A DNA stretch of 11,717 nucleotides, taken from Candidatus Tenderia sp. (GTDB lineage Bacteria; Pseudomonadota; Gammaproteobacteria; Tenderiales; Tenderiaceae). The notes below the pieces were generated by a model, which worked only from the letters and a program-made list of their open reading frames with translations, ran no database searches and was not told the DNA's origin. The DNA is taken from positions 1 through 11,717 of the forward strand of contig JANOSY010000070.1 of assembly GCA_031416075.1 (NCBI GenBank), given 5' to 3'. Below, in pieces: positions 359 through 11,717 of this stretch. The position numbers and the translations under genes are program-made. Position 1 is the first letter of the stretch. Each line of letters opens with the position of its first letter.

Positions 359-3300
359 GTGATCATCATTAGCACATTAAAATTTTGGACTCGCGCACGA
401 AACGGGATGGCTAACGAGTGGGACTCTGAGGTGTTACGTTCGGAGCTGCTTAGTATTGAGCAGCTGAAGCGCCACGCGGTAACGCTGGCCGGGCAGCATC
501 GCATCGATCCACATAAAGGGCCAGATCGGCTATTGCCACGTCTGGCAGATAATGAGCGTGTTCTGCTGGCGGCCCATGATCTGGTGACACTCTCCGTAAC
601 CGTGGGGCAACGGATAGTCTCGGCCGAAGCGTGGTTGCTGGATAATTTTTACATCATTGAACAGCAGACCGGTTTGGTGCGCCGCCATCTGCCACGCGGT
701 TACAGTCGGCAATTGCCGCGCTTGGCGGGGGGGCCGCTGGCCGGTTTTCCGCGCATCTATGAGCTGGCCCTGGAGTTGATCTCTCACATGGATGGTCGCG
801 TCGACAACGACAACGCCACCCACTTTATCGCCGCTTACCAGACGGTTGCGCCATTAAAACTAGGCGAGTTGTGGGCATTTCCGATCATGCTGCAATTGGC
901 GCTGTTGGAAAACTTGCGTCGCGTTGCTGTGCGCATCGCTCGTCGGCGCGAGGAGCGCGACGCGGCTATCCGCTGGGCCGAGCGTATGCTGGCGACCGCC
1001 GAAACAGCGCCTAAGCGGCTGGTTCAGTTGCTGGCTGAGTTTGCCAATGCCGATGTGCCGCTGACCGCATCTTTTGTCGAGGAGTTTTATACCCGACTTC
1101 AGGCGCAAGGGTCGGCATTGGCATTCATTCAAACCTGGGTCGAGCAAAAACTGTTGGCGCAGGGGGTGACGGCGGCGCAGTTGTCGGAGGTGGCTGCCCG
1201 AACCCTCGCGGCCAATCAGATCTCCATTGCCAACAGCATCGGCAGTCTGCGTTTCATTGGTGCGATGGATTGGCAAAGTTACGTCGAGTCGCTCAGTGTT
1301 GTTGAGCAGATATTAGGCGAAGACCCGGCAGACATGCATAAGTACCAGGATTTTGCGACCCGCGACCGTTACCGGCATGTCATCGAGGATGTGGCAAGGA
1401 GATGTGTGCATAGTGAGTCAGACGTGGCGCGCGAAGCCATTGTGTTGGCGCGGGCGGAAGCAATACGCTCAGGCATCGATGATCGCCGTGCCCATGTGGG
1501 TTACTACCTGATCAATCACGGAAGAGAGCAGTTGGAACAGGTGGTCGGCGCCCGTTTGTCATGGCGGGTGCGTGCCAAACGGCGCTGTCAGCACGCCCGT
1601 CTGTTCCTTTACCTTGGTCCCATTCTGTTGCTTACGCTGGTGTCGACATGGGCGGCGCTCTCTTATGCCGGGCTTGCACCGGGTGACTGGCGTTACTGGT
1701 TTTTTGCCTTCACCGGCCTCATCGGTGTTTCGGCGCTGGCCCTGCCTTTAGTAAATCTTTTGGTCACGCTCGTGTTACCACCACGCACCTTGCCGCGGCT
1801 GGATTTTCCCCAGGGTATTCCGCTGACTCACCGCACCATGGTGGTGGTTCCGACCATGCTAAGTAAGCCGCAAGATGTAGACGATTTGCTCGAAGCATTG
1901 GAGATCCGTTATCTCGGTAACCGTGATCCCAATCTGTTTTTTGCTTTGTTGACTGATTTTTATGATGCGTCTGAGCGCACGCTGCCGGGTAATGAGGCTC
2001 TGCTTGCTCATGCACGGACCGCGCTGCAAACACTTAACGAGACCTACCGTGGGGATCGTTCATGCATCTTCTATCTGTTTCATCGGTCGCGACTGTGGAA
2101 TCCCATTGAACAGGTGTGGATGGGCTATGAACGCAAACGCGGCAAACTGGAGCAGTTCAATGCCTTGTTGCGGGGCGAGGCGACCACGGCATTTTCGGAG
2201 ATCGTCGGTGATACCTCCATCCTTGCGTCAATCAAATACGTTATTACCCTGGATACCGACACGCAACTGCCGCGTGAAACGGCGCACAAACTCATTGGTA
2301 ATATCGCCCACCCGCTCAATCGACCGCTGTATGACGCCGACAAGGGCCGTATCGTCGAGGGTTACGCCATCCTGCAGCCGCGTACGTCCGCTAGCTTGAT
2401 CAGTGCCGGTCGTTCACGTTTTAGCAAACTGTACGCCGGGGATTCGGGCATAGATCCCTATACGCGTGAAGTGTCGGATGTCTATCAGGATATCTTTGGC
2501 GAGGGATCGTTCATCGGCAAGGGCATCTATGATGTGGATGCCTTTCGTCAGGTGCTTGATGGTCGCTTGCCGGAAAACCTTATCCTCAGTCACGACCTGC
2601 TGGAAGGCGGCTACGCCCGTTCGGCCCTGGTGAGTGACGTAGAACTGATTGAGGAGCAACCGGCCAGTTATGTCACGGAGGCGAGTCGACGCCATCGCTG
2701 GATACGAGGTGATTGGCAGCTGGCCGGTTGGTTGTTACCGAGCGTGCCCGGACCGGATTGTTTGCCGGAGAGTTTGAATGACTCCACCGAATCACAAGAT
2801 AAAACCAGCGCAATAACATCAACCTCACAACGGCAACCAAACCCGCTCAGCGGCTTGTCGCGTTGGAAAATTTTCGACAACCTTCGCCGTAGCCTGGTGT
2901 CGCCTATGTTGTTTGTTTTGCTGGTCGGTGGCTGGTTGTTGGCGCCGGAATCGGCTTGGTTTTGGATCTTATTGGTTTTGGGGATTATGTTCCTGCCGGT
3001 TTTGCTGTCCAGCCTCATCGAGCTGACCCTGAAGCCGAAAGAGCGTGATTGGCAGGTACATCTGGTTTTGACCGGGAAATCTGCGAGTCGGCCGATAACG
3101 CTCGCCTTGCTGGGGTTGGTGTTTTTACCCTACGAGGCGTTGATTTGTTTGAGTGCAATGCTGCACTCAGGTGTGCGCATGCTGTTCACGCGCCGCAGGT
3201 TATTGCTCTGGCAACTGCGATCTTATGCAAACCGGAATGGGCGGAGTAGCTTGGCCGATTTTTTCAAGGAGATGTGGGTCGGACCGAGCGTGGCGTTGGT

Positions 3301-6300
3301 GTTGGGTGCTTCAGTGAGCGGTGAGACCTTGCTCTTCTGTGCACCGGTGTTGTTGCTCTGGCTGGTGTCGCCAGTGGTTGGTTGGTGGATCAGTACACCA
3401 ATAAGTCCGCCGCTACCGGCATTGAGTCTTGAACAACGAGCCTTCCTGCGCATCTCGGCCCGGCGCACCTGGCGCTTCTTCGCCGATTTTGTCGGTCCGC
3501 AGGAGAACTGGCTGCCACCCGATAACTTCCAGGAGTATCCCGCGACGGCCATCGCCTCACGCACCTCGCCCACCAACATCGGCATGGCCCTGTTGGCGGA
3601 TCTGGCAGCCTACGATTTTGGCTATATCGGCTGTGGTGAATTGTTGCAACGCGTCGAGAATACCCTGACCACCATGGAGAAGCTGGAGCGCTACCACGGT
3701 CATCTATTCAACTGGTACGACACACGCTCTCTGGCCCCTCTACAACCACAGTATGTCTCATCGGTGGATAGCGGTAATCTGGTCGGCAGCCTGCTCACCC
3801 TGCAAGCGGGACTGGCCGAGTTGAAACAACGACCGGTGTTGTCGGTCAATGCATTTCAGGGGTTGGCAGACACCCTGCAGGTGCTCGTTGAGCATGTGCC
3901 CACATCACCTGCCCCTGACCTTGCCAGGAAGGTCAGGTCTTTGCAGGAGAGACTTCAGGCAATGATCGCGACCGACCCGCCACAGACGCTGGCAGCGGCT
4001 AATCAGTTGTTGAATGAGCTTCACGATAGTGGTGGCGGGTTAGTGGCATGGTTACCGGCGGATACCTATATCGATGGTGAACTCTATTACTGGGCACAGG
4101 CCTTTGAGCAGCAATCCCGCACGCTTCAGGAAGAGCTTCTAAGCCTGGTTGCTGAACCACGGCACTTCAGCCATATACCAACACTGGTGGAACTGGCCGA
4201 AGAGCGCGCCGTATCGTCAACGGCGGCAGAGCGCTTGCGAGTGATCGATACGTTGGTGGATCGATGCCATCAGCTGGCGGAGATGGATTTTGATTTTCTC
4301 TACGACCGGTCGCGTGATCTACTGAGCATCGGTTACGACATGGGTGAACGGCGTCGCGATCCCTCCTGTTATGACCTGCTGGCCTCCGAGGCGCGTCTGG
4401 CCAGTTTTCTGCTTATCGCTCAGGGCAAGCTACCGCAGAAGCATTGGTTTTCACTCGGCCGTCTGTTGACTAGCCATGGTGGCGACGTGAGCCTGATTTC
4501 GTGGAGTGGCTCGATGTTTGAGTACCTGATGCCGAGCCTGATCATGCCCAGTTACGACAACACCCTACTGCAGCAGACCTGTAAGGCGGCGGTGTCGCGC
4601 CAGATCGAATATGGCAGACAGCGCGCCGTGCCCTGGGGGATTTCTGAATCCTGTTATCACGCCACCGATATGCAGCGGGTCTATCAATACCGGGCATTTG
4701 GTGTACCTGGTTTGGGTTTTAAACGCGGCCTGGGTGATGACCTGGTGATCGCCCCCTATGCTAGCGCACTGGCATTGACGGTGATGCCGCAGGAAGCGTG
4801 CAGCAACATGCAACGACTCGCGACCGAGGGGTTTGTGGGCGACTATGGATTCTATGAAGCGGTGGATTACACCCCCTCACGTGTGCCGCGAGGTAAAAAT
4901 TACGCCATTGTGCGCAGCTTCATGGCACATCATCAGGGCATGAGCCTGCTGGCCTTTACGCATGTGTTGCACGCTCAACCGATGCAACGCCGGTTTATGG
5001 CTAATCCCCTGGTGCGGGCGACGGAATTGTTGCTACAGGAGCGTATCCCGAAGAAGGGCGCGACGCTGCACCCACATGCGGCCGAGGTGAGTGCTGCGGC
5101 ACGTCCCCCGGCCGTGGAAGAGGGAGGGGTTATGAGCGTGTTTACCGATCCCGCTATGCGTATCCCCGAAGTGCACCTGTTGTCCAACGGCCGCTACCAC
5201 GTCATGGCGACCCATGCCGGTGGTGGCTACAGTCGGCGGGGTGATTTGGCAGTCACCCGTTGGCGTGAAGATGTCACTTGCGATAGTTTTGGTACCTTCA
5301 TCTATCTGCGTGATCGTGATACGGGCCGTTATTGGTCCAGCGCCTATCAACCGACGCTGCGCAAGGCCGAACATTACGAGGCAATCTTTGTGCAGGGGCG
5401 GGCGGAGTACCGGCGTCGCGACGAGGCAATAGAGGCGCATACCGAGATCAGCGTGTCGCCCGAAGACGATGTGGAGATTCGTCGCGTTACGCTCACCAAT
5501 CAGTCCTCACACAGCCGAAACATTGAGGTGACCACGTACGCCGAGGTGGTGCTGGCGCCGTTGAGTGCCGACCTGGCCCATCGTGCGTTTAGTAACCTGT
5601 TTGTGCAGACAGAGATCCTGCCCGAGCAGCAGGCGATTCTCTGCACCCGTCGACCACGTACTCCGGGCGAACAGGTGCCGTGGATGTTTCATCTGTTCGC
5701 CGCCCCTGGCGTGAACAGCAGCGAACCCTCCTACGAAACCGATCGCGCCAGGTTCATCGGTCGCGGTCGTACGGCGGCCAACCCGTTGGCGCTGGATGGC
5801 GGGGATGGCTTGTCGAACAGCGCCGGACCGGTGCTCGATCCTATCGTCGCGATTCGCCGCACACTCAGCTTGTCAGCCGATGAAACGGCCACCGTGCAGA
5901 TCATCTCCGGTGTTGCCGATAGCCGCGAGGCCGCCTTGGCGGTACTCGAAAAATATTGTGACCGCCACTTCGTTGAGCGCGCCTTTGAAATGGCCTGGTT
6001 CCAGAGTCAGGAGGTGTTGCACCACCTCAACGTTGGCGAAGCGGATGCGCAGGTCTATGGCCGTCTCGCCACCTCGGTGATTCACGGTAACGCCCTGCGT
6101 CGTGCCGCGCCCGGCATCATCGCCCGCAATCAGTTGGGGCAGTCCGGGCTGTGGCGTTTTGGTGTTTCAGGTGATCTGCCCATTATCTTTATCAGCATCG
6201 GCGATCTGAAGCGCATCGAGCTGGTAAAGCAGGTGCTGCAAGCGCATGCCTATTGGCGCATGAAGGGGGTGGCGTCGGATCTGGTGATCGTGAACGAGGA

Positions 6301-9001
6301 TTTTTCCGGTTACCGGGCTGTATTGCAAGACCAAATTATGGGGTTGATCAATGGCGGCCCCGAAGCGCATTTTATCGACAAGCCGGGCGGGGTCTTTGTA
6401 CGCCGTGCCGAAGAGCTTTCCGAGGATGAGCGTGTGCTGTTCCAGAGCGTGGCTCGCATCGCGTTCCGTGATAACGCCGAGACATTGATCGAGCAGGTGG
6501 AGCGTCGTGTCTCGTCCCGGCGGCCATCGGACCTGTTGGAGCCGGTGCGAAAACCCTCAGCAGAACCGATCCAGCCACTGTTGGCGCGTGAACGCATTTT
6601 CTGTAATGGACTGGGCGGCTTTACCCCCGATGGGCGTGAATATGTGATTACGCTAGAGCCGGGACAGACCACACCGGCACCGTGGGCCAATGTCATCGCC
6701 AGCCCGCATATCGGCACCGTTGTCAGTGAGAGCGGCAGTGCCTATACCTGGGTGGAAAATGCCCACGAGTTCCGACTGACCACCTGGCACAATGACCCAC
6801 TGAGTGACAGCAGCGGCGAGGCGCTTTATATCCGTGACGAGGAGAGTGGTGAGTTCTGGTCGCCGACACCCTTACCTGCGCGCGGCAAATCCGGCTATAC
6901 CTGTCGACACGGTTTTGGCTACAGCGTCTTTGAGCACTATCAGTCTGGTATAGCTTCGGAGCTGTTCATCTACGTCGCCATGGATGCCCCGGTGAAGTTC
7001 GCCGTGGTCAAGCTGCGCAACCATTCGAGACGTGCGCGGCACTTATCATTGACCGGCTACTGGGAGTTGGTGCTCGGTGAGTGGCGCCACGCCAATCTGA
7101 TGCACATCATGACCGAAACGGACACACACAGCGGGGCGCTGTTTGCCCGCAATAGCTACGGCCGTGAATGTGCGAATCGGGTTGTGTTTGCCCAGGTAAG
7201 CGATGCCCATATCAGCCTGACGGGGCGCACACTGAGTGGTAACCGCACCGAGTTCATTGGTCGTAACGGTTCACTGGCCAAGCCAGCGGCAATGCGCCGC
7301 AAACGCTTGTCGGGCAAGACCGGCGCGGGACTTGACCCTTGCGCCGCGATACAGACTCAGATTGAGCTGGCCGAAGGTGAAGAGTGCGAGGTGGTGTTTG
7401 TGTTTGGCGCAGCCGGCAGTAGTGACGAAGCGCGTCATCTCATCCAGCGGTTCGGTGGGCCAGCCGGTGCGCGCCAGGCGCTGGAGGCGGTGTGGGAATA
7501 CTGGAACCACACCTTGGGTGCAATCAATGTGGAGACGCCTGATCCTGCATTGGACATCATGACCAACGGTTGGCTGGTCTATCAGACACTCTCCTGCCGC
7601 TATTGGGCCCGCAGTGGCTACTATCAGTCCGGCGGTGCCTATGGTTTTCGCGATCAGTTGCAAGATACCATGGCGCTGATCCATGCGACCCCATGGCTGG
7701 CACGCGAGCAGTTAGTCCGTTGCGCCGGGCATCAGTTTCACGAGGGGGACGTGCAACACTGGTGGCATCCACCACACGGCCAGGGCGTACGCACCCATTT
7801 CTCTGACGACTATCTATGGCTGCCCTATGCAACCTGTCGTTATGTGCTGACAACTGGCGACACGGGTGTGCTTGATGAGCAGATCAATTTCCTCGAAGGG
7901 CGCGAATTGAACGCCGAAGAGGAGGCTTACTACGACCAACCGCAACGCTCCAATGACACGGCAAGTCTCTATGAACATTGCGTACTTGCCATCAAACATG
8001 GACTGCGTTTTGGTGAACATCAGCTGCCGTTAATTGGTTGCGGTGACTGGAACGACGGCATGAATCTCATCGGCCGGGAGGGCAAGGGTGAGAGCGTTTG
8101 GCTGGCGTGGTTCCTCTACGAAAATCTACAACAGTTCGCCGACCTGGCACTTAGCCGCGACGATGAAACCTTTGCCGATGTGTGCACCGAACAGGCCGCA
8201 CAGCTACGCAAAAACATCGAGGCCAACGCCTGGGATGGCGACTGGTATCGGCGCGCCTATTTCGATGACGGCACCCCCTTGGGCTCGGCGCAAAATGACG
8301 AATGCCAAATCGATTCGATCAGCCAGAGTTGGGCGGTGATCTCCGGCGGCGGCGATAGCAAGCGCGCCCAGCAGGCGATGGCAGCGGTAGACAAACGTCT
8401 GGTACGACGCGACGCCCAGCTGATTCAACTGCTCGATCCACCTTTTGATAAGTCGCCACTCGAGCCTGGCTATATCAAAGGCTACATCCCAGGCGTACGT
8501 GAAAACGGCGGCCAATATACCCACGCCGCCATCTGGACCACCATGGCGTTTGCCATGATGGGCGAGCGCGAGCGCAGCTGGGAGCTGTTCGCCATGCTTA
8601 ATCCCATTAATCACGGCAGCACGGCTGAGCAGATAGAACACTACAAGGTCGAACCCTACGTCATGTGCGCGGATATCTATGCTGCAGCGCCGCATACCCG
8701 CCGCGGCGGCTGGAGCTGGTACACCGGAGCAGCGGGATGGATGTACCGACTAACCGTGGAAACGCTATTGGGCCTACAGCTCGAAGTAGACCAGCTACGC
8801 ATCACGCCGTGTATCCCAGAGGATTGGTCGTCGTACAAAATCCACTACCGCTATCGCGAGACCGTCCACCACATCACCGTAAAACGCGCAGCTGAAGGGG
8901 CCGGGCGTGTGACGCTCGATGGCGTGGTGCAGAAAGCGCTTAATGTGATTCCGCTGGTTGATGATCGCCGTGAGCATTACGTGGAGGTGGAATTGCCTTA
9001 A
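359..9001 (+). CDS. ndvB: Cyclic beta-1,2-glucan synthase (Cgs/NdvB/ChvB family): GT84 glycosyltransferase, cyclase (glucoamylase-like/GH189) and C-terminal GH94 phosphorylase
   Basis: Uninterrupted 2880-aa ORF. GT motifs: WMGYERKRGKL, YVITLDTDTQLP, EGSFIGKGIYDVDAF, LSHDLLEG, RRHRWIRGDWQ, flanked by hydrophobic TM segments. Middle domain: PPDNFQE, RTSPTNIG, YVSSVDSGNL, YDLLASEARL, SWSGSMFEYLMP, PWGISES, FMAHHQGM. Two GH94 beta-sandwich modules (HLLSNGRY; PAPWANVIA), then catalytic motifs YYQSGGAYGFRDQLQD, GDWNDGMN, GESVWL, RENGGQYTHAA. The start is uncertain (GTG 359 vs ATG 407). Confidence 0.95.
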   Translation: MIIISTLKFWTRARNGMANEWDSEVLRSELLSIEQLKRHAVTLAGQHRIDPHKGPDRLLPRLADNERVLLAAHDLVTLSVTVGQRIVSAEAWLLDNFYIIEQQTGLVRRHLPRGYSRQLPRLAGGPLAGFPRIYELALELISHMDGRVDNDNATHFIAAYQTVAPLKLGELWAFPIMLQLALLENLRRVAVRIARRREERDAAIRWAERMLATAETAPKRLVQLLAEFANADVPLTASFVEEFYTRLQAQGSALAFIQTWVEQKLLAQGVTAAQLSEVAARTLAANQISIANSIGSLRFIGAMDWQSYVESLSVVEQILGEDPADMHKYQDFATRDRYRHVIEDVARRCVHSESDVAREAIVLARAEAIRSGIDDRRAHVGYYLINHGREQLEQVVGARLSWRVRAKRRCQHARLFLYLGPILLLTLVSTWAALSYAGLAPGDWRYWFFAFTGLIGVSALALPLVNLLVTLVLPPRTLPRLDFPQGIPLTHRTMVVVPTMLSKPQDVDDLLEALEIRYLGNRDPNLFFALLTDFYDASERTLPGNEALLAHARTALQTLNETYRGDRSCIFYLFHRSRLWNPIEQVWMGYERKRGKLEQFNALLRGEATTAFSEIVGDTSILASIKYVITLDTDTQLPRETAHKLIGNIAHPLNRPLYDADKGRIVEGYAILQPRTSASLISAGRSRFSKLYAGDSGIDPYTREVSDVYQDIFGEGSFIGKGIYDVDAFRQVLDGRLPENLILSHDLLEGGYARSALVSDVELIEEQPASYVTEASRRHRWIRGDWQLAGWLLPSVPGPDCLPESLNDSTESQDKTSAITSTSQRQPNPLSGLSRWKIFDNLRRSLVSPMLFVLLVGGWLLAPESAWFWILLVLGIMFLPVLLSSLIELTLKPKERDWQVHLVLTGKSASRPITLALLGLVFLPYEALICLSAMLHSGVRMLFTRRRLLLWQLRSYANRNGRSSLADFFKEMWVGPSVALVLGASVSGETLLFCAPVLLLWLVSPVVGWWISTPISPPLPALSLEQRAFLRISARRTWRFFADFVGPQENWLPPDNFQEYPATAIASRTSPTNIGMALLADLAAYDFGYIGCGELLQRVENTLTTMEKLERYHGHLFNWYDTRSLAPLQPQYVSSVDSGNLVGSLLTLQAGLAELKQRPVLSVNAFQGLADTLQVLVEHVPTSPAPDLARKVRSLQERLQAMIATDPPQTLAAANQLLNELHDSGGGLVAWLPADTYIDGELYYWAQAFEQQSRTLQEELLSLVAEPRHFSHIPTLVELAEERAVSSTAAERLRVIDTLVDRCHQLAEMDFDFLYDRSRDLLSIGYDMGERRRDPSCYDLLASEARLASFLLIAQGKLPQKHWFSLGRLLTSHGGDVSLISWSGSMFEYLMPSLIMPSYDNTLLQQTCKAAVSRQIEYGRQRAVPWGISESCYHATDMQRVYQYRAFGVPGLGFKRGLGDDLVIAPYASALALTVMPQEACSNMQRLATEGFVGDYGFYEAVDYTPSRVPRGKNYAIVRSFMAHHQGMSLLAFTHVLHAQPMQRRFMANPLVRATELLLQERIPKKGATLHPHAAEVSAAARPPAVEEGGVMSVFTDPAMRIPEVHLLSNGRYHVMATHAGGGYSRRGDLAVTRWREDVTCDSFGTFIYLRDRDTGRYWSSAYQPTLRKAEHYEAIFVQGRAEYRRRDEAIEAHTEISVSPEDDVEIRRVTLTNQSSHSRNIEVTTYAEVVLAPLSADLAHRAFSNLFVQTEILPEQQAILCTRRPRTPGEQVPWMFHLFAAPGVNSSEPSYETDRARFIGRGRTAANPLALDGGDGLSNSAGPVLDPIVAIRRTLSLSADETATVQIISGVADSREAALAVLEKYCDRHFVERAFEMAWFQSQEVLHHLNVGEADAQVYGRLATSVIHGNALRRAAPGIIARNQLGQSGLWRFGVSGDLPIIFISIGDLKRIELVKQVLQAHAYWRMKGVASDLVIVNEDFSGYRAVLQDQIMGLINGGPEAHFIDKPGGVFVRRAEELSEDERVLFQSVARIAFRDNAETLIEQVERRVSSRRPSDLLEPVRKPSAEPIQPLLARERIFCNGLGGFTPDGREYVITLEPGQTTPAPWANVIASPHIGTVVSESGSAYTWVENAHEFRLTTWHNDPLSDSSGEALYIRDEESGEFWSPTPLPARGKSGYTCRHGFGYSVFEHYQSGIASELFIYVAMDAPVKFAVVKLRNHSRRARHLSLTGYWELVLGEWRHANLMHIMTETDTHSGALFARNSYGRECANRVVFAQVSDAHISLTGRTLSGNRTEFIGRNGSLAKPAAMRRKRLSGKTGAGLDPCAAIQTQIELAEGEECEVVFVFGAAGSSDEARHLIQRFGGPAGARQALEAVWEYWNHTLGAINVETPDPALDIMTNGWLVYQTLSCRYWARSGYYQSGGAYGFRDQLQDTMALIHATPWLAREQLVRCAGHQFHEGDVQHWWHPPHGQGVRTHFSDDYLWLPYATCRYVLTTGDTGVLDEQINFLEGRELNAEEEAYYDQPQRSNDTASLYEHCVLAIKHGLRFGEHQLPLIGCGDWNDGMNLIGREGKGESVWLAWFLYENLQQFADLALSRDDETFADVCTEQAAQLRKNIEANAWDGDWYRRAYFDDGTPLGSAQNDECQIDSISQSWAVISGGGDSKRAQQAMAAVDKRLVRRDAQLIQLLDPPFDKSPLEPGYIKGYIPGVRENGGQYTHAAIWTTMAFAMMGERERSWELFAMLNPINHGSTAEQIEHYKVEPYVMCADIYAAAPHTRRGGWSWYTGAAGWMYRLTVETLLGLQLEVDQLRITPCIPEDWSSYKIHYRYRETVHHITVKRAAEGAGRVTLDGVVQKALNVIPLVDDRREHYVEVELP

Positions 9002-9689: not shown

Positions 9690-10448
9690 TTGGCACTACT
9701 ACTTTGTCCTCGAAATGTTGATTGAACAATAGATGATTACACCACACCAGAACGCCGCCCCGAGGTAGTATTGGTTTGCCAAGGTGCCACTCATGACTTG
9801 AGGAAGGAATAGGAACAGCAGCATGAATGCCCCGACTCCTATGCCGACGTAGTTCCATACGCTCGGCTTCTTGGCAAAAGGCTCTGCTCTCTGAAGCGTA
9901 GCGGAATACTCCGCAGTCGACGGCAACGAAACTGTTGATTGTGGAGTGCTTACCTTCGCCAGATCGCGCATGCGGATAACGTAGGTGTTTGCAACCATAT
10001 CCCCGATCCGCTGCTTCCGTTGTGAAAAAAAGGCCACAATACCTGCCGGAATGCCTCCTGCTACCAGTGGATTTACTTCAACAAGTCTGAATAGTGTTCG
10101 AACGAATATTTGGCCAAGGCTAGGTCGATTACCTTTCTCATTGACCACAATTGTCCCGGTGAGCAGTTTGCCGAGTGTTCTACCCCACAGCCATTCCGTG
10201 ACGACAAAATATGACAACGCCAAAACTAACCAGATGAACAGCGTCTTACGGTAAAGCTCATTGCCGAGAAGCCAATCTGGAATTAGCAGACATGAAACCG
10301 AGACAACCATGTCGACCCAACACCCAAGCCACCGATTCACAATGATGGATTTTCCGTAGTGCTCTGCGATACCGCGCACAGAACTCCGCTCCGGTTCAAT
10401 AACGCTTGTTTCTTCTGGCACAGTTCCTCCTTGGGATTAATAGGCTAA
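9643..10448 (-). mobile_element. Integron gene cassette carrying an RDD-family gene
   Basis: Bounded by G/TTAGCC crossover sites at 10449/10448 and 9643/9642. It holds a single ORF with only an RBS upstream and an attC directly downstream. No intI is present in the window. Confidence 0.85.
9699..10421 (-). CDS. RDD-family membrane protein with C-terminal two-helix extension
   Basis: 240 aa. GTG start with AAGGAGG RBS (10426-10432). RDD motifs: R(WLGCWV)D, YF..E..WGRTLGK.LTG..VV, R.LFR, QRIGDMVANTYV. A S/T/P-rich linker and two hydrophobic segments follow. Confidence 0.88.
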   Translation of the reverse strand: MPEETSVIEPERSSVRGIAEHYGKSIIVNRWLGCWVDMVVSVSCLLIPDWLLGNELYRKTLFIWLVLALSYFVVTEWLWGRTLGKLLTGTIVVNEKGNRPSLGQIFVRTLFRLVEVNPLVAGGIPAGIVAFFSQRKQRIGDMVANTYVIRMRDLAKVSTPQSTVSLPSTAEYSATLQRAEPFAKKPSVWNYVGIGVGAFMLLFLFLPQVMSGTLANQYYLGAAFWCGVIIYCSINISRTK

Positions 10449-10460
10449 CGTAAAGTTGAG
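10443..10460 (-). other. Distal part of an attC site split by IS110 (part of L', spacer, R')
   Basis: Minus strand CT-CAAC-TTTAC-GTTAGCC. Joining to 11717-11712 (GCCCCT) through the shared CT gives GC-CCTCAAC-TTTAC-GTTAGCC preceded by a further C-run, i.e. an L' box, 5-nt spacer and R' core just upstream of the next cassette gene. Confidence 0.8.
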
Positions 10461-10473
10461 ATACCGTCTTGCC

Positions 10474-10479
10474 TGTCAA
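10474..10479 (-). promoter_or_regulatory. -35 box (TTGACA) of the IS110 circle-junction promoter
   Basis: Perfect TTGACA overlapping the transposase TGA stop. On circularisation it sits exactly 17 bp from TATCTT in the left end. Confidence 0.8.
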
Positions 10480-11456
10480 GCATGATTTTCTGACAAAGAG
10501 GGATCGAAAGGTCTGCCGGATTTCAGTACACCGTAAACTATATGTATCAATTTACGCATCACCGCACCAATAATCACCATATTTGGTTTGCCTGCTTTCT
10601 TCAAACGATCAGCAAATTCCTTGATCACTGGATTATAGCGCCGTGCCACAATGGCGGGCATATACAGCGCTCTTCTTAATAGCGAGTTTCCTTTCTTGGA
10701 TAAGTGTGGCTTACCCCGCACCGAACTTCCAGATTGATGCACCGTGGGATTAAGTCCAACAAACGCGGCCAGTGCCTTGGCATGCTCGAATCGTTGTACA
10801 TCCCCAATAAACGCCAAGAGTCGGGCAATGGTCGCTTTTCCAATGCCTGGAATACTCTCCAGTAGACCCGATTGGTCTTTCAAATCGGAATGACGGTCAA
10901 TATGACCATGGATTAACGCTTCTACGCTTTTGATTTCTGCCTTGATGGTGGCTAATACTGTCGCAATAGAGGGACGAATCACAGCGGTAGCTGTATCCAT
11001 GCGATTTTGTTCCTGCCCTTCTATCTGAACGAGCGAGGACAAGCGTTGAACCAGCGCCTGTAGTTCACGCACATGCAGTGGCGGCGGTGTCCAGTGGCCT
11101 GGACACACCTTCTGATAAAACTCTGCAATCAGCTTAGCATCGGCTTTGTCGGTCTTGGCGCGCTTCAACTGCGCACCGCTAAAACTCTTAATCTGTGCGG
11201 GATTGACCACGCTCACAATAAAACCCTGATCATAAAGATAGGTCGCCAGCGCATCACCATAACAACCCGTCGCCTCCATGCAAGCAGCCACGGTGGTGAA
11301 GCCTTGTTTCAACAACCAGTTCGACAGTGCTTTAAATCCATCAGGCGTATTTTCGAACACATGAGTCTTCTTAATTTTACCTGCAACCATCAATGCTACA
11401 TCAAACTTCGCCTTGGAAATATCAATTCCCAGAATGCCGTTGTGTAAGTCCGTCAT
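10476..11456 (-). CDS. IS110-family DEDD transposase / bridge recombinase (326 aa)
   Basis: RuvC-like DEDD residues in GID, MEATG and KTDKAD; also VVNP, IPGIG, GLNP and the QSGSS catalytic-serine motif. ATG 11456 has an AAGGA RBS (11464-11468) and is preferred over the ORF-track start at 11513. Confidence 0.95.
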   Translation of the reverse strand: MTDLHNGILGIDISKAKFDVALMVAGKIKKTHVFENTPDGFKALSNWLLKQGFTTVAACMEATGCYGDALATYLYDQGFIVSVVNPAQIKSFSGAQLKRAKTDKADAKLIAEFYQKVCPGHWTPPPLHVRELQALVQRLSSLVQIEGQEQNRMDTATAVIRPSIATVLATIKAEIKSVEALIHGHIDRHSDLKDQSGLLESIPGIGKATIARLLAFIGDVQRFEHAKALAAFVGLNPTVHQSGSSVRGKPHLSKKGNSLLRRALYMPAIVARRYNPVIKEFADRLKKAGKPNMVIIGAVMRKLIHIVYGVLKSGRPFDPSLSENHA

Positions 11457-11516
11457 ATTATTATCCTTGCACACAAACCAAAAAAAGCACTCCATGCGGA
11501 AGTAACACCCCAATTC

Positions 11517-11700
11517 AGATCAACCTTGTGAATGCAGGATCATGATAAAAATCAGTCCTAAGATACCGTCCGATCTTAATGAATATAGGTGGGGGAAGGG
11601 CACCAATCTCAACTACAGGCTCAATGGCCTTGGGGCACGCCCGGCATCCCTTCTCCCTGCTCTTTCGCGTAAGAGCAATTTAGCTCATTTCTGAGCTGAA
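11517..11700 (-). ncRNA. IS110 bridge RNA (5' hairpins, target-binding loop, donor-binding loop)
   Basis: Hairpins at 11682-11697 and 11658-11677. Target loop 11591-11657 carries guides CGTGCCCC (11639-11632) and AGTTGAG (11614-11608) around inner stem AGGC/GCCT. Donor loop 11517-11576 carries GACGGTATCT (11570-11561) and ACAAG (11529-11525). All four guides match flank or element-end sequence in this window. Transcript ends are approximate. Confidence 0.88.
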
Positions 11701-11703
11701 GGT

Positions 11704-11709
11704 AAGATA
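11704..11709 (-). promoter_or_regulatory. -10 box (TATCTT) of the IS110 circle-junction promoter
   Basis: TAnnnT hexamer 2 nt inside the left end and directly upstream of the bridge RNA. Confidence 0.7.
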
Positions 11710-11711
11710 CA

Positions 11712-11717
11712 AGGGGC
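11712..11717 (-). other. Proximal stub of the attC site split by IS110
   Basis: Minus strand GCCCCT matches the left target guide (GCCCC) and supplies the CT core. The rest of the site is outside the window. Confidence 0.65.

Follow-up and report, generated by a model that had tools for sequence, protein, structure and literature searches.

A candidate IS621-type bridge RNA with matching donor and target guides in an IS110-group insertion sequence of Candidatus Tenderia

The window considered here, meaning the whole 11,717-nt stretch of DNA that was analyzed, poses the question of why the same ten bases, AGATACCGTC, stand at exactly 10459–10468 and again at 11561–11570, and in no third place. 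The first-pass annotation read the first copy as the right end plus core of a mobile element and the second as part of the donor-binding loop of a bridge RNA, so that the loop would match the circle junction of its own element. We confirm the observation, and the interpretation is supported, with all of the claims made at the sequence level holding. With a probability of about 0.9, positions 10459–11713 of the reverse strand are a complete IS110-group insertion sequence of ~1.25 kb that carries an IS621-type bridge RNA of ~190 nt upstream of a DEDD/serine recombinase gene. The features are collected in Table 1.

Table 1. Features of the element and its flanks, in window coordinates. TBL, loop that binds the target; DBL, loop that binds the donor; RE/LE, right end/left end.
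Feature	Position	Strand	Basis or remark
Target right half, CAACTTTACGTTAG in element sense	10445–10458	−	Within REP-like palindromic repeat; follows CT in unoccupied copies on C58 and C74
CT core, right end	10459–10460	−	CT is the sole sequence common to both junctions and the empty sites
Left donor half ACGGTAT, last 7 element bases	10461–10467	−	Identical in 16/18 related elements tabulated
TTGACA, predicted −35 box; overlaps recombinase stop codon	10474–10479	−	In-silico RE/LE junction; complete promoter only in the circle
IS110-family DEDD/serine recombinase, 326 aa, ATG at 11456	10476–11456	−	Pfam and PDB matches
Spacer from DBL to start codon, with U-run 11486–11480 and ribosome-binding site AAGGA	11457–11509	−	Sequence reading
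DBL: outer stem, left donor guide, inner hairpin, right donor guide	11510–11582	−	Covariance-model alignment to the IS621 DBL; compensatory pairs in helices 3, 4, 6 and 7
DBL handshake guide GU	11523–11524	−	Letters as IS621 G166/U167; G can pair with target position 7 (C)
Right donor guide AUUCACAAG	11525–11533	−	ACAAG complementary to CT-TGT, AU to the next AT, two bases looped out
Left donor guide GACGGUAUCU (IS621-equivalent ACGGUAUC at 11569–11562)	11561–11570	−	10-nt identity with right end plus core
TBL: outer stem, left target guide, inner hairpin 11630–11617, right target guide	11591–11657	−	Alignment; helices 1 and 2 all with compensatory changes
TBL handshake guide AU	11606–11607	−	Letters as IS621 A81/U82; complementary to donor positions 6–7 (AT)
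Right target guide AGUUGAG	11608–11614	−	Complementary 7/7 to CT-CAACT
Left target guide GCGUGCCCC	11632–11640	−	Sense of GCGCGCCC-C with one U.G wobble; next base, A 11631, mismatches core T
Predicted RNA 5′ part, two small hairpins	11658–11697	−	Fold; start placed close to A11697, 7 nt past the −10 box, by IS621 analogy
TATCTT, predicted −10 box of junction promoter	11704–11709	−	In-silico junction
Right donor half TGTAT, first 5 element bases	11707–11711	−	Junction reading
CT core, left end	11712–11713	−	Junctions and empty sites
Left target half, last 4 bases GCCC	11714–11717	−	Contig end

Element ends, target repeat and recombinase

In gene sense, the left junction of the element reads GCCC-CT-TGTATCTTACC... 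and the right junction ...CAAGACGGTAT-CT-CAACTTTACGTTAG. Two further junctions occur in the same genome, a left one at the end of contig C26 and a right one at the start of contig C74, and they are 99–100% identical to the ends in the window over 141–149 nt. Unoccupied sites are present on contigs C58 and C74, where they read ...GCGCGCCC-CT-CAACTTTACGTTAGG (C58; a close variant in C74) and sit in an imperfect palindromic repeat of ~60 nt. Two right junctions, two left junctions and the unoccupied repeat copies thus fix the element ends at 10459–11713. The genome carries at least two insertions in the same repeat and at the same CT; this CT is the core at either end of the element and also in the empty target. 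For the window copy, only 4 bases of left flank are present, and the left target half used below was taken from the second copy on C26.

The target belongs to a small family of ~60-nt imperfect palindromic intergenic repeats of the form ...GTTCGAGCGGGAC-hairpin-CCCCTCAACTTTACGTTAGG, with copies on C58 (~133–202), C74 (~939–960), C37 and C24 and at 10445–10458 of the window. In the C74 copy the central hairpin is kept via changes on both arms, and in the C37 copy TT replaces the CT core. Related elements (L004–L008) are inserted in repeats of this kind whose right arm differs. The gene for an RDD-family membrane protein (9699–10421, reverse strand) starts 38 nt past the right end, placing the insertion in the upstream region of that gene. 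Elsewhere in the window, a single 2,880-aa open frame on the forward strand (359–9001) contains two GH94 domains, a glucoamylase-like domain and a weak GT2 match, the make-up of a predicted cyclic beta-1,2-glucan synthase.

The product of the element's own gene has both Pfam domains of the family above their cut-offs (PF01548, E 2.2e-26; PF02371, E 3.1e-28), and its best solved relatives in the PDB are the IS621 transposase (260 bits) and ISCro4 (258.9 bits). It is 46.3% identical to the IS621 recombinase. Based on the list of IS621 catalytic residues given in PMC11208158, residues D12, E61, D103, D106 and S242 align to IS621 D11, E60, D102, D105 and S241, and all five catalytic residues are kept. 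At 90% identity the protein forms a singleton cluster.

Fold and covariation of the predicted RNA

Folding of the 255 nt from the left end to the start codon gives two short 5′ hairpins followed by two stem-closed internal loops, and the range picked out by the first-pass annotation, 11517–11576, is precisely the loop closed by the proximal stem AGAUCGG/UUGAUCU. Relative to shuffled sequences, the folding energy is unremarkable (z = −0.90 for the 255 nt and +0.19 for the two loops alone; IS621, −2.59). With this thermodynamic signal absent, structural support rests on covariation, which was partly counted on a model-fitted alignment.

When the window was first aligned with ten relatives, drawn from betaproteobacterial and Wolbachia/Rickettsiales genomes, the consensus comprised 30 pairs, and 14 of these showed compensatory changes. 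In 18 of 23 sources, the covariance model built from these 11 sequences, R1, from which IS621 was left out, matches once, on the strand of the gene and upstream of it; it is without a match in L013, L020, L022, L037 and L038, which are truncated or very distant. R1 also recovers the RNA of the genuine IS621 locus (L040:336–485, 40.4 bits, E 1.5e-9). The match begins at L040:336, which is nt 34 of the IS621 RNA, the position at which the target-binding loop begins according to PMC11208158; nt 1 then falls at L040:303, 7 nt after TATTAT.

In the model-fitted alignment of 20 matches, 93.3% of cells are paired, compared with 69.5% in shuffled and at most 47.3% in slid alignments; changes on both sides are found in 24 of the 30 pairs, and none of 500 shuffles reaches any of these measures, although this alignment leans toward the model and most of the covariation lies between two clades, betaproteobacterial and Wolbachia-type. 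The covariation signal is real, but the independent events behind it are fewer than the cell counts imply.

A search of Rfam with the window gave no match, whether at gathering scores or with E allowed up to 10. Rfam 15 misses the IS621 RNA as well, which indicates that the library is blind to RNAs of this sort and that the negative result for the window is uninformative. The flanks of the IS621 copy (L040:229–287 and 1608–1673) match Rfam naRNA4 at 47.2 and 43.1 bits, below the cut-off of 59.5.

The spacer that follows the donor loop contains no stable hairpin by folding (z +0.92) and no terminator in the scan. A run of seven U at 11480–11486 (reverse strand) lies between the donor loop and the ribosome-binding site, where close relatives are U-rich too; it might mark the 3′ end of the RNA or act as a brake on read-through into the recombinase gene.

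The position of the RNA also bears on which group of elements is at hand. The IS110 and IS1111 groups are placed in one superfamily (PMC13604230), and the element could be imagined to belong to the IS1111 subgroup as a seekRNA element, whose guide RNA would lie downstream of the gene. There are, however, just 15 bases from the stop codon (10478–10476) to the right-end CT core; the structured RNA is upstream, R1 matches upstream of the gene only, and the closest solved relatives are IS621 and ISCro4. We therefore consider a seekRNA element extremely unlikely and retain the IS621-type assignment.

Guides and the DNA that they match

The 10-mer AGATACCGTC is expected at a mean of 0.01 copies in dinucleotide-preserving shuffles of the window, none of which reaches its two copies in 200 attempts. 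A second match, absent from the first-pass annotation, involves the other loop: ATCTCAACT at 11606–11614 is an inverted copy of 10454–10462, which comprises right flank, core and the last two element bases. This 9-mer occurs twice, as against 0.06 expected, and never twice in 200 shuffles; the match is as strong as that of the 10-mer. The annotation had also paired CTTGT at 11525–11529 (forward strand) with its inverted match at 11709–11713 (reverse strand). The location is right, but the bare 5-mer is not above chance, with 16 matches in the window versus 21.6 expected, and the match has meaning only through its position and its gapped extension AUUCACAAG (11533–11525), in which the IS621 right donor guide AUUUGCAAG is mirrored. 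If all of these matches were accidental, the 5-mer alone would look just as it does, no commoner than expected; the behavior of the two longer words in 200 shuffles each, and the recurrence of the same guide/DNA relations in independent orthologues, reduce the probability of such a coincidence to a negligible level.

The donor-loop guides fit the joined ends at 9/9 (left) and 5/5 (right) positions, the latter with the looped-out pairing scheme described for IS621 A157–G165 in PMC11208158. The left target guide, compared with the flank of the second copy, fits at 7/9 positions by strict identity and at 8/9 with a U.G wobble, the core T being unmatched. The wobble and the unmatched core T count against the reading preferred here; Durrant et al. 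(PMC11208160) report a strong preference for guides that pair with both core bases. The right target guide fits its own flank at 7/7 positions in 12 of the 14 elements with known flanks, which represent six different flank sequences; the exceptions, both at 5/7, are IS621 at the fetched site and L016. In a guide/flank matrix of nine representatives (L005, L006, L016, L023 and L029 were omitted as near-duplicates), the cognate mean is 6.78/7, compared with a non-cognate mean of 4.82 and a maximum of 6 over 68 pairs. Handshake guides, as defined in PMC11208158, are present in both loops: for the target-binding loop, the bases after the best guide match are AT in 13 of 14 element rows, and after strand exchange both guides can pair with non-cognate DNA (AU with donor AT, and the G of GU with target C7). 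Two sites may be natural off-target sites, namely L009:202–210, with a left flank of 7/9, and L016:2163–2167, with a right flank of 5/7.

The predicted donor, ACGGTAT-CT-TGTAT, reads out from the element ends as claimed. The IS621 donor, which the first-pass annotation gave as differing by one base, is ACAGTAT-CT-TGTAT in a fetched E. coli IS621 copy, and guide and donor do share the change, the left donor guide being ACAGUAUC in IS621 and ACGGUAUC in the window. Matching guide changes accompany further donor variants as well: ATGGTAT with AUGGUGUC in L010, CGTAT with ACGAG in L011 and L012, and TATGT with AUAAG in an enterobacterial group. With ACGGTAT present in 16 of the 18 elements tabulated, it is the common state; IS621 is thus the variant and the element in the window is not. 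The target loop, in turn, is rewritten as had been proposed: AUCGGGCCU and GUAG in IS621 are replaced by GCGUGCCCC and AGUUGAG in the window, and the window version fits its own flanks.

A direct repeat of an end sequence within an element might, as a matter of principle, bind a protein, and the 10-mer could accordingly be a subterminal recombinase-binding repeat that acts at the DNA level, with no RNA guide. Three results argue against this: (i) the 10-mer lies in a loop between stems whose pairing survives via compensatory changes; (ii) the second loop tracks the flanking target, which is outside the element, in 12 of 14 elements; and (iii) the region can be aligned, position for position, with the bridge RNA that experiments defined for IS621 (PMC11208158). 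A DNA-level repeat is thus very unlikely, and we interpret the loops as RNA guides.

An element of bridge-RNA type by descent could nevertheless have become immobile, with inherited guide/end matches and a crippled RNA or enzyme. The A at 11631, where IS621, L004, L007 and L009 have U, would be in keeping with such decay, as would a fold without thermodynamic signal. On the other side, the 326-aa frame is intact with its five catalytic residues, and there are at least two insertions at cognate sites with ends that are 99–100% identical. The same A variant is found in L008, in another genome and with 81% protein identity, again at a cognate site, and has therefore persisted through divergence and transposition. 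We regard immobility as unlikely and continue with a complete bridge-RNA element as the preferred reading.

In the closest relatives, the donor loop is unchanged and the right target guide follows the local repeat variant. These IS110-group elements from betaproteobacterial metagenome genomes (L004–L009 and L021; Gallionellaceae, Sideroxydans and Burkholderiales labels) share 77–87% protein identity with the window's recombinase, have a donor and donor loop identical to those in the window and occupy targets in the same REP-like repeat family. The right target guide changes along with the right flank, to AGCUAAG with CT-TAGCT in L004–L007 and to AGCCAAG with CT-TGGCT in L009, whereas L008 shares its guides with the window. 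The guides of close relatives thus visibly track variants of a host REP-like repeat.

Metagenome contigs from four runs (X1, X3, X5 and X8) break within the target loop, at window positions 11594–11640, and their loose ends carry other right target guides, namely the AGCUAAG type of L004 and two more types; in three of these runs, the donor-loop stretch 11505–11594 is the shared part with the highest summed depth. This contig evidence suggests several co-existing element variants that differ mainly in the target loop. Farther away, elements of Wolbachia and Rickettsiales (L018, L019, L024, L026, L031 and L032), with recombinases 37–54% identical to that of the window, keep the left end CT-TGTATCTT and, almost unchanged, the core of the donor-loop guides (GGACGGUAUC ... 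ACAAGGUU). A simple pattern search found no matching right end for several of them; in L026 and L027 the right end appears to be ...AATAGTAT-CT.

Proposed mechanism and comparison with known systems

By analogy with IS621, we infer that the element is excised as a circle, that the RNA is transcribed from it and that recombination is guided by the two loops. Joining right and left ends in silico gives TTGACA-17 nt-TATCTT, the same geometry as in IS621 (TTGCAG-17-TATTAT), and the same −35 place holds TTGACA in L004, L008 and L009 and TTGACT in L011. A promoter scan of the integrated window found none. The 20 public runs listed for the sequence are all stored as assembled contigs, with no RNA run among them. 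Contigs of four runs from four studies contain no joint between 10461 and 11711, but assembled contigs drop rare forms and are uninformative on the circle. In the circle, the junction would build the promoter that drives the RNA. The 5′ guide of the donor loop, ACGGUAUCU, which has the sense of right end plus core, would pair with the bottom strand, and the 3′ guide, AU..ACAAG, would be the complement of core plus left end; together they would specify the RE–LE donor ACGGTAT-CT-TGTAT, while the target loop would specify CGCGCCC-CT-CAACT in the REP-like palindromic repeat of the host. A recombinase tetramer would then hold donor and target on the two loops and exchange strands at the CT cores, and the handshake guides AU and GU could pair with the opposite DNA after the first exchange.

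The element is a new member of the IS110 bridge-RNA family described in 2024, and its differences from IS621 are variation within that kind. In terms of biology, it confirms the published picture for IS621 and its predicted orthologues and opens no new question. Thousands of orthologues of IS621 were predicted by Durrant et al. (PMC11208160) and 72 were tested by Perry et al. (10.1101/2025.05.14.653916), and the orthologue tables of both may already list this element. The label of candidate orthologue for programmable recombination is fair at the level of sequence, but it applies to one among very many. As a tool, the element would offer one more candidate; it shares only 46% identity with IS621, and its right target guide is naturally long. 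As a natural example of a bridge RNA, it allows the donor, the target, both guide pairs, the handshake guides and the predicted junction promoter to be read from its sequence.

A further, doubtful idea is that this lineage is a naturally 'improved' bridge system, already equipped with three features that had to be engineered into IS621 for efficiency or specificity (a right target guide of 7 nt, a canonical A:T where IS621 has G161, and productive-type handshake guides). Its left target guide would manage without a pair at the second core base, and the lineage has nonetheless lasted through divergence and several insertions. If the idea were true, pairing between the left target guide and the core T would be dispensable in some orthologues, and the element could possibly serve as a more specific starting scaffold than IS621.

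IS621 itself was reached via a protein search of plasmids, which found copies annotated as IS621, and one copy (L040) was fetched; its product matches PDB 8wt6 at 732.6 bits over 326 residues. The ends of this copy are ATCAGGC-CT-TGTATTATCC... and ...ATAACAGTAT-CT-ACGTG, and its guides are AUCGGGCCU, GUAG+AU, ACAGUAUC and AUUUGCAAG+GU. It agrees with the wild-type target ATCAGGCCTAC quoted in PMC11208160 and with the donor ACAGTAT-CT-TGTAT quoted within a donor oligo in PMC13396178. At the DNA level, blastn found no similarity of the window element to IS621; with the window element as query, the hits were limited to five unrelated IS110 genes on plasmids (68% identity, covering 18% of the query), and a search with an enterobacterial relative matched only a 53-nt flank repeat and no IS621.

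The likeness to IS621 of E. coli (PDB 8wt6; PMC11208160, PMC11208158) extends to a two-loop RNA in the left end upstream of the recombinase gene, CT as the core, a target of REP type, the handshake guides AU and GU, the right donor half TGTAT, a predicted junction promoter whose spacer is 17 nt long, and the DEDD+S catalytic residues. The differences include: a left donor half ACAGTAT in IS621 and ACGGTAT in the window, with the matching guide change; unrelated targets, ATCAGGC-CT-AC and CGCGCCC-CT-CAACT, respectively; a right target guide of 4–5 nt in IS621 versus 7 nt in the window; G161 of IS621, in place of which the window has an A that pairs canonically with donor T12; a left donor guide match in the window that spans both core bases; a left target guide in the window without pairing to the core T (A at 11631, U in IS621); one long 5′ hairpin in IS621 versus two short ones in the window; and an RNA that ends at the start codon in IS621, compared with ~50 nt including a U-run before the start codon in the window.

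ISCro4, or IS622, of Citrobacter rodentium (PDB 9t56) belongs to the same family (258.9 bits to the window's protein) and, at a reported 88% identity to IS621 (10.1101/2025.05.14.653916), is far nearer to IS621 than the present element is. By its description, ISPpu10 of Pseudomonas putida (10.64898/2026.03.19.712850) is similar in habit, being an IS110 element with all insertions in copies of one conserved intergenic repeat, and that work proposes an extra structural layer in target recognition.
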